Position numbers and translations under genes: made by a program
DNA from: an uncultured delta proteobacterium
Lineage (GTDB): Bacteria; Desulfobacterota; Desulfobaccia; Desulfobaccales; 0-14-0-80-60-11
DNA: 64,000 bases
Reading direction: 5' to 3'
Assembly (NCBI GenBank): GCA_963812015.1
Contig: CAWETI010000003.1
Span: 352,001 to 416,000 of the forward strand
Part shown: piece by piece, positions 19,438-20,794 of the stretch
How the letters are laid out: every line of letters begins with the position of its first letter
Numbering within the stretch: position 1 is the first letter of the stretch
Notes under the pieces: generated by a model
Databases searched by the model: none
What the model saw: only the letters and a program-made list of their open reading frames with translations
Told to the model about the DNA's origin: nothing

Positions 19438-19559
19438 CGGAAGCTGTGCATAGCTGAGGGAGGGGGAGGGGCTTTTCCGCTTTTCGGAAGTGTGACCCCT
19501 CACCCCCCCTCACCCTGACCCTTGTATGTTAAAGGGAACCGGTACATAGTTTAGTCATT

Positions 19560-19725
19560 AAAGAACCAGGCCATCAGGAGCAGTACTGCTCCTGATGGCG
19601 GCGTGGCAGGCCGTCCTAACCCTTGGTCCTTCAAGACCGCGGTGAGAGCGTGGCCGCCACGTCGCCCTGGCATTAACCCGAACAGTCGCCCGGGCTTTGA
19701 AGCCCGTATCTTGCAAGGACGGGAG
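19560..19725 (+). ncRNA. Predicted IS110 bridge RNA (boundaries approximate)
   Basis: 5' hairpin 19570-19599; target loop with CCTAACCCT and GAGAG; donor loop with ACAGTCGC and TGCAAG. Confidence 0.85.
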
Positions 19726-19738
19726 GCCAAGGCTTTTT

Positions 19739-20692
19739 ATGCACCCTGAATCCGTATTTGTCGGCATTGACGTCTCTAAGGACCAGTTAGACATCGCCAT
19801 CCGGCCAGGAGAGGTCCGGTTCCGGGAGTCCAACAACGACTCCGGTATCCAGGCCCTCATTGCCCGACTTTTGTCCCTTAAGCCCCAGCTCATCCTCCTG
19901 GAAGCCACCGGTGGCTATGAGATCCTGGCCGCCGCCGCCTTGCGGCAGGCTGACCTGCCGGCCCACATTATTAACCCTCGTCAGGTGCGAGACTTTGCCC
20001 GGTCCTCCGGCAGATTGGCCAAAACCGATAAGATCGACGCCGCGGTTCTGGCTCATTTTGCCGAGGCGCTGAAACCGTCCCTCCGACCCTGGCCAGATGA
20101 GCATCAACAGGAATTGGCCGCCCTCATGAGCCGGCGCCGGCAACTGGTGGAGATGCTGGTCATGGAGAAAAATCGCCTATCCATGACTTTCTCCCCACGG
20201 GTCCGCAGAAGCCTGCAAACCAACCTCCAATCCCTTAAAGAACAACTTAAGGAGTTGGAGCAAGATTTGGACGACTTCATCCGTCAAAGCCCCATCTGGC
20301 TGGAGAAGGATCAACTCCTCCAGAGCGTCCCGGGAGTCGGCCCCTTAACCTCCCAAAGCCTGTTAGCCTGGGTGCCGGAGTTAGGCACCTTAAATCGCAA
20401 GAAGATCGCCGCCCTGGTGGGGTTGGCCCCCTTTAACCGCGATAGCGGTCAGATGCGGGGCAAGCGCACCGTTTGGGGTGGCCGGGCCCGGGTGCGGCCT
20501 CCCTTGTATATGGCTACGTTGGCCGCCTGCCGGGTCAATCCGGCCATCCGTGCCTTCTATCTCCGGTTGCTGGCAATGGGTAAGAGCAAGAAATTGGCTC
20601 TTACCGCCTGTATGCGTAAACTGTTAACCATCCTTAATGCCATACTTAAACAACAGCAACCCTGGTGCCCCCTTGCACCAGTTAACCCTTGA
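19739..20692 (+). CDS. IS110-family DEDD recombinase
   Basis: GIDVSK, LEATG, KTDKIDA (DEDD), SVPGVG, RDSG serine; GGAGG RBS. Confidence 0.95.
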
Positions 20693-20794
20693 CATCTAAC
20701 ACAGTCGCTCTCCCCCCGCTGGGGGGAGAGGGGAAAAGGAAGGAACCTTTGGCGAGGGTCACTTACAAAAATCCCCCGCCCGCCTCGCATTTTT

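Follow-up and report, generated by a model that had tools for sequence, protein, structure and literature searches.

How is an insertion sequence directed to one particular repeat of its host? The question is raised by a locus in the 64,000-nt stretch of DNA from an uncultured delta proteobacterium that was analysed here (the window), in which a first-pass annotation had proposed an IS110 bridge RNA with guides programmed against a host REP-like repeat. Bridge recombinases have been predicted in thousands, with 5,511 target-RNA pairs in the part of PMC11208160 covered here. Concerning the present locus, we estimate a probability of roughly 0.93 that window 19523-20707 is an intact, recently expanded IS110-group insertion sequence which moves by bridge-RNA-guided recombination. 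Its features are collected in Table 1, and all of the motifs quoted in the annotation were found in their places.

Table 1. Features of the element and of the BoxC copies in the window
Feature	Position	Strand	Basis
Interrupted BoxC/TM repeat, left part	19507-19520	+	9 left flanks compared
Left target, 7 nt, TGA loop type, 1 guide mismatch at position 4	19514-19520	+	
Left CT core	19521-19522	+	all 9 left junctions of the genome
Left end, 216 nt, encodes predicted bridge RNA	19523-19738	+	fold, copies, shuffles
Right donor TGTAT	19523-19527	+	
-10 hexamer TATGTT	19525-19530	+	
Sub-terminal repeat GTTA	19528-19531	+	
5' stem-loop, perfect 30-nt palindrome	19570-19599	+	sequence and fold
Target-binding loop	19600-19663	+	fold, IS621 numbering, relatives
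Target-loop guides	left 19615-19623, right 19644-19648	+	
Target-loop handshake pair	19649-19650	+	
Target-loop scaffold positions	A19608/G19613 and A19634/G19639	+	
Donor-binding loop	19664-19733	+	fold, IS621 numbering, relatives
Donor-loop guides	left 19682-19689, right 19708-19717	+	
Donor-loop handshake pair	19718-19719	+	
IS110 recombinase, 317 aa	19739-20692	+	profiles, alignments
Right end	20689-20707	+	copies, junction sequence
-35 hexamer TTGACA, overlapping stop codon	20689-20694	+	
Sub-terminal repeat TAAC	20697-20700	+	
Left donor ACAGTCG	20701-20707	+	
Right CT core	20708-20709	+	8/8 full copies
BoxC repeat, right part: right target 20710-20714 and purine-rich hairpin arm	20710-20732	+	
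Empty BoxC copy, CAG loop, 2 mismatches to left guide	2281-2316	+	
Empty BoxC copy, CAA loop, 1 mismatch to left guide	53697-53737	+	

Recombinase, ends and copies of the element

The 317-aa product of ORF 19739-20692 carries PF01548 (RuvC-like DEDD domain) and PF02371 (Tnp domain), and scores 239 bits against NCBIfam NF033542 (cut-off 140). Its catalytic residues align with those of IS621 (E 5e-37) and ISCro4 (E 7e-38): D11, E55, D97, D100 and S236 are all intact at the catalytic positions, and the frame is open, as had been claimed for an intact recombinase. The profiles and alignments place the protein in the IS110 group (bridge recombinases) of the IS110 family. A short motif search indicated that the recombinase shares its catalytic-serine motif with ISEc32/ISKpn42/ISBcen8/ISSm3, ISNme5 and ISCps7 (Fig. 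1c in the part of PMC11208160 covered).

The 3.96-Mb genome contains eight full copies of 1,185 bp, each bounded by CT, and one left-end stub; the CT core is present at all nine left junctions and at 8/8 right junctions of the full copies. Since the flanks of the eight full copies diverge at the cores, the ends and the CT core could be fixed independently of the guides. The full copies are >99.6% identical, and all retain open frames and every catalytic residue. Three positions, 19553, 19859 and 19863, set the window copy apart from the other seven; one lies in the left end and two alter residues 41-42. Contigs of runs X1 and X2, in which the copies are collapsed, display the majority bases at these positions, and the variants may thus be specific to this copy or assembly errors. 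Read depth in run X1, possibly the source sample, was ~52-76 within the element and 8-9 in the flanks.

The left end comprises 216 nt and the right end extends 15 nt past the stop codon. There are no long terminal repeats, and a 4-bp sub-terminal repeat (TAAC/GTTA) flanks the 14-nt donor. In elements of the IS1111 group (seekRNA), the RNA is encoded in a long right end and the sub-terminal repeats span 7-17 bp; with a right end of only 15 nt and a repeat of only 4 bp, the present element lacks these features. At the predicted circle junction, TTGACA and TATGTT would be spaced by 17 bp in a promoter-like arrangement, and such a -35 is absent from the left flanks of all integrated copies. We found no circle or empty-site joints in four contig sets, which as contigs cannot show absence. 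Elsewhere in the window lies an rRNA operon (2653-9518; 16S, two tRNAs, 23S and 5S), with two weaker 5S-like matches beyond its 5S (8801-8922 and 9404-9518).

A predicted bridge RNA with four guides

Folding of the left end, which the first-pass annotation had suggested as a check, gave a 5' stem followed by two stems with internal loops (19545-19738, -88 kcal/mol, z -4.7). No Rfam family matched the left end. The left target guide CCTAACCCT (19615-19623) matches the left flank and core (19514-19522) at 8/9 positions, and is followed by the right target guide GAGAG (19644-19648). The left donor guide ACAGTCGC (19682-19689) matches 20701-20708 at 8/8 positions, and TGCAAG (19712-19717) lies within the donor-binding loop. 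In 20,000 dinucleotide shuffles of 19545-19738, the target guides appeared singly in 411 (left) and 4,300 (right) and the donor guides in 40 (left) and 15,620 (4-nt right); all four in order appeared in 0/20,000. Taking into account that single guides arise by chance in the shuffles, only the four-guide combination is significant.

IS621 numbering (PMC11208158, in part) can be applied cleanly to the A and G positions of the scaffold, to the four guides and to both handshake pairs. The target-loop handshake C19649-G19650 complements donor positions 7 and 6, and G19718 of the donor loop complements target position 7, the arrangement described in the covered part of PMC11208158 as favouring strand exchange. 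The segment preceding the right target guide is 9 nt long here, as against 8 nt in 32/34 guide sets, and as a result the right-side target pairing amounts to 5 bp (6/7 in the IS621 register). We also considered a register with a bulged U, in which T19643 is flipped out and pairing to the repeat reaches 7 bp. It fits this element; related locus L170, the only other distinct 9-nt BoxC-targeter parsed, would mismatch, and the right target guide was therefore read as 5 nt. The same 9-nt left guide occurs in the part of the IS621 reprogramming screen covered, with a log10(CPM+1) of 1.85 when matched and 0.39 with one mismatch (2/3 rows).

Covariation of guides and sites in relatives

The best 80 of at least 494 confirmed related loci were examined with rules that rely on the scaffold only; 46/80 were parsed and 34/80 failed. 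With identical guides collapsed beforehand and permutations that ignore relatedness, the right guide agreed with the right flank at 132/150 positions in 30 elements (permutation mean 44.1, max 72); for the left guide and left flank, the agreement was 136/182 positions in 26 elements (mean 66.0, max 94). In a hand-chosen alignment of 25 sequences (the window and 24 of the 46 parsed loci), 18/24 consensus pairs of the scaffold display two-sided change. Position 166 and target position 7 form a Watson-Crick pair in 22/26 relatives (G:C 18, A:T 2, T:A 2). The nearest relative among the 80, L006 (60% identical), has a near-identical scaffold and different guides, and its different target matches those guides. 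The fold, the four-guide shuffles, the copies and the covariation agree with the earlier proposal of an IS621-type bridge RNA with a CT core and both target and donor guides.

Many close relatives, L003, L005, L006, L023 and L072 among them, sit at the base of palindromes of GTAG or similar type, and the clade thus seems to switch repeat families by guide change. L170 has nearly the same target-loop scaffold, with its left guide changed by one base, and sits in a CAA-loop BoxC with a right half identical to that of the empty window copy at 53697. Judged by guide and site together, L170 is a natural retargeting inside the BoxC repeat family. In three loci from Chloroflexota/Anaerolineae (L073:402-681, L074:402-681 and L051:71-350), apparently two tandem target-binding loops with similar guides precede one donor loop; they were recognized by eye, and for L073 and L074 also in the fold. 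A regex scan of the 80 loci for tandem target loops flagged only L048 (1/80) and missed all three, and a phrase search found no paper on tandem target loops in IS110 left ends.

Identity of the target repeat

The guide does match a host repeat, as had been proposed, but the repeat does not belong to the classical REPs. Read as its reverse complement, the target gives the TM_ECO pattern, and the left guide spans its type A 3-nt loop. According to the covered part of PMC4666352, this pattern, earlier named BoxC or PIT, consists of two pyrimidine nonamers 3 nt apart followed by a purine nonamer, and the hairpin loop of the strict consensus is 3-6 nt. The loop is often longer here: the window site, with 9 nt, fits the relaxed pattern and not the strict one. 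The strict consensus is found at 1/8 occupied sites and in three empty motifs. Relaxing the loop gave nine empty motifs (TGA 5, CAA 2, TAG 1, CAG 1), and 4/8 occupied sites as assembled or 5/8 after un-swapping two flanks (TAA 2, TGA 3; see below). The two further copies that the annotation had placed near 2279 and 53694 are present and empty, and the window's empty BoxC copy matches 4,811/5,426 E. coli genomes (blastn, E<=1).

A classical REP has a GTAG-type tetranucleotide at the base of its palindrome (PMC6006769, in part). None was observed at the BoxC-type sites inspected, and the covered part of PMC6006769 contains nothing on this repeat. A RAYT- or DUF559-linked REP was rejected as the target, the genome having three weak Y1_Tnp and no DUF559 matches. 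By its sequence pattern, the target repeat is the BoxC/PIT/TM_ECO intrastrand triplex motif known from E. coli. A second pyrimidine-rich repeat subfamily, represented at C3:326573, shares the core target with one mismatch; one of its copies is occupied and 12 are empty.

Insertion sites in the genome

The annotation had named beforehand, as its refutation, insertion of other copies at sites unrelated to the target. All nine left flanks proved to match the left target guide, at 7/7 positions in three full copies and the stub and at 6/7 in five copies. No perfect 12- or 14-mer is empty in the genome; 22 one-mismatch 14-mers are empty (1.07 expected). An exact 11-nt guide match outside the repeat, at C2:1303600, is also empty, which counts against the best explanation. 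A preference for the perfect loop type is based on small numbers (Fisher p 0.04 with two flanks un-swapped, 0.21 as assembled). One occupied site belongs to the second pyrimidine-rich subfamily, and another is degenerate.

The left flank of the copy at C2:1146482 (L081) and the right flank of that at C3:812637 (L082) are neighbouring DNA in 4/7 relatives' loci examined, and when joined extend a response-regulator frame. As the separated halves adjoin in relatives and join a frame, the two copies have exchanged flanks, either by inter-copy recombination or through mis-assembly. Un-swapping restores two sites, a perfect BoxC and a non-repeat sequence that folds weakly and still matches the guide at 6/7 left positions, the core and two further bases. 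One insertion thus probably lies outside any repeat, yet matches the guide; the site itself is diverged in relatives.

The stub (L084:1946-2257; C2:1263945) breaks off inside the 5' stem, at a microhomology of 7 nt to flanking DNA of the C2:909804 copy, whose left flank its own resembles. It is followed by a C-terminal fragment of a REP-associated tyrosine transposase (RAYT; NF047646, E 7e-15, below the cut-off).

Other IS110 elements at BoxC

A metagenome scan for the BoxC left half joined to an IS110-type right donor returned at least 120 stretches, 80 of them with DNA. Among these, 53 had >=400 nt downstream, and an IS110 recombinase, 28-58% identical to that of the window element, was present in 38/53 (at least 120 stretches listed). 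Wherever the right end could be located, the right half of the repeat, itself outside the search pattern, follows in the flank (27/27 among the matches listed); likewise among the matches listed, the target loops of 16/18 parsed BoxC-targeters pair 7/7 with the right half. The left guides of 18 metagenome elements agreed with the BoxC loop at 27/54 positions (permutation mean 18.3, p ~0.001), a weak result with about seven rows mis-registered. In the host's phylum, BoxC-IS110 junctions were found in 5/301 genomes, that of the window included.

A tree of 54 proteins was poorly resolved: it has 13 label changes, of which starred branches force one, and 9/500 shuffles were as low. A single clade of BoxC-targeters was rejected (p-AU 9e-7) with 25 rows picked after seeing the tree, a selection that biases the test. 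These comparisons indicate that a single base of BoxC serves as the insertion point of many IS110s, which in the hand-picked subset do not form one clade. One of the BoxC-targeting elements, L146, had no match in E. coli genomes. Plasmid-borne IS110s match the recombinase at ~50%, and the one copy read, on a Klebsiella plasmid, occupies a non-BoxC site matching its own guides.

Unnamed IS110s with the same target repeat are included in Supplementary Data 1-2 of Durrant et al. 2024, the 11-nt target occurring 36 times in file 4 and as often in file 5 (parts searched). In some of these rows the left guide is the same as in our element, and the same 14-nt donor occurs in other elements (64 and 148 occurrences, parts searched). 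The BoxC-targeters there differ from our element in scaffold and donor guide (at most 25/36 rows), and among the natural elements in the file parts searched neither its junction string nor its target-loop string was found. By these data, this target is already known from other IS110s, and this donor from other elements. What is added here is the use of one BoxC base by many IS110s. No such link was found in print, the 72-orthologue table of 10.1101/2025.05.14.653916 lying outside the comparison: a literature search gave nothing relevant linking IS110 to BoxC or intrastrand triplex motifs, and a search with words of the target sequence nothing relevant among the matches listed.

Discussion

The element resembles IS621 of E. 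coli and ISCro4/IS622, as described in the covered parts of PMC11208160, PMC11208158 and 10.1101/2025.05.14.653916, in its domain pair, catalytic residues and CT core. The likeness extends to the long left end with a 5' stem, target loop, donor loop and conserved A and G scaffold positions, to the handshake logic, junction promoter and short sub-terminal repeats, and to an intergenic palindromic repeat as the site, with a mismatch at target position 4 tolerated. On the other hand, the protein is distant (131-134 bits), the target and left donor differ, the right target and right donor segments are each one nucleotide longer than in IS621, and our element is known from sequence alone. ISPpu10 of Pseudomonas putida (10.64898/2026.03.19.712850, in part) is likewise an IS110 bridge element with a CT core, a structured-repeat target and an occurrence at rearrangement boundaries. 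It targets a REP with a 5' stem-loop, whereas the BoxC hairpin spans the core together with the right target.

In the mechanism that we propose, the donor loop would pair with the circle junction and a recombinase tetramer would exchange strands at the core, the handshake positions favouring insertion. A guide tuned to BoxC/TM, reading across the 3-nt loop, would provide intergenic landing sites, with base pairing rather than repeat structure as the main determinant of targeting. The ends, core, catalytic residues, guides, guide-matching sites and covariation in relatives can be read directly from the DNA; the circle, junction promoter, RNA, tetramer and strand exchange are modelled on IS621, and we infer that this orthologue is active and programmable. 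Copy-out routes for such elements, reported in the covered parts of two preprints, would fit the eight copies, and a 2026 paper (in part) describes a bias towards insertion.

Taken singly, the guide matches are short and some turn up often in shuffles, as they would if targeting depended on the protein only or on homology and the guide-like matches were coincidental. The four guides in order never arose in the shuffles, guides covary with sites across relatives, and L006 combines a near-identical scaffold with other guides and a correspondingly other target; coincidence is therefore extremely improbable. We also regard it as quite unlikely that the copies are relics of an earlier expansion, with the window copy or all copies now inactive. 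One copy is indeed a stub, the window copy has its three private changes, and the contigs, within their limits, contained no circle junction. However, the near-identity of the copies, with their open frames and complete catalytic residues, argues against this, as do near-identical elements with other flanks in other samples (runs X3 and X4; L142, 145/152 nt).

A further reading grants that the guide sets the address, and adds the BoxC hairpin or intrastrand triplex as a second determinant that raises insertion efficiency. In its favour, the complete BoxC motif is present at five of the eight sites when un-swapped (four as assembled), where hairpins of -10 to -15 kcal/mol take in the core and the right target; the same BoxC base is used by many IS110s, and the exact 11-mer outside the repeat is empty. 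In addition, the target stem-loop of ISPpu10 is reported to raise insertion efficiency (10.64898/2026.03.19.712850, in part), but it lies 5' and involves the left target, unlike the BoxC hairpin, which involves the right. Folding is weak at two occupied sites (-3 and -4 kcal/mol), of which one probably lies outside any repeat; in vivo footprinting gave no support for stable triplex formation (PMC4666352, in part), and selection for intergenic safe havens would explain the convergence without structure. We consider this addition doubtful, and retain bridge-RNA-guided recombination by an intact element, with base pairing as the main determinant.

As a tool, the element is one more candidate, whose merits are that the enzyme is compact (317 aa), the expansion recent and the natural sites well mapped. 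More is to be gained from its target. BoxC has been an unexplained repeat; in the covered part of PMC4666352 it is reported as having no link to mobile elements in E. coli, and TM loci are tied to local instability by an unexplained mechanism. That BoxC/TM is a recurrent landing pad, on which IS110 lineages converge by guide rewriting, is supported by the comparison of sites; the combined view, in which the hairpin or triplex also acts as a second determinant, is tentative and rather unlikely, its structural part and the connection to instability being speculation. The insertion of many IS110s at one BoxC base opens two questions to testing: does non-B DNA structure help bridge-RNA targeting, and does IS110 traffic play a part in TM-associated rearrangement? 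If both landing pad and structure hold true, we may speculate that IS110 insertion and inter-copy recombination would explain part of the instability of TM loci.
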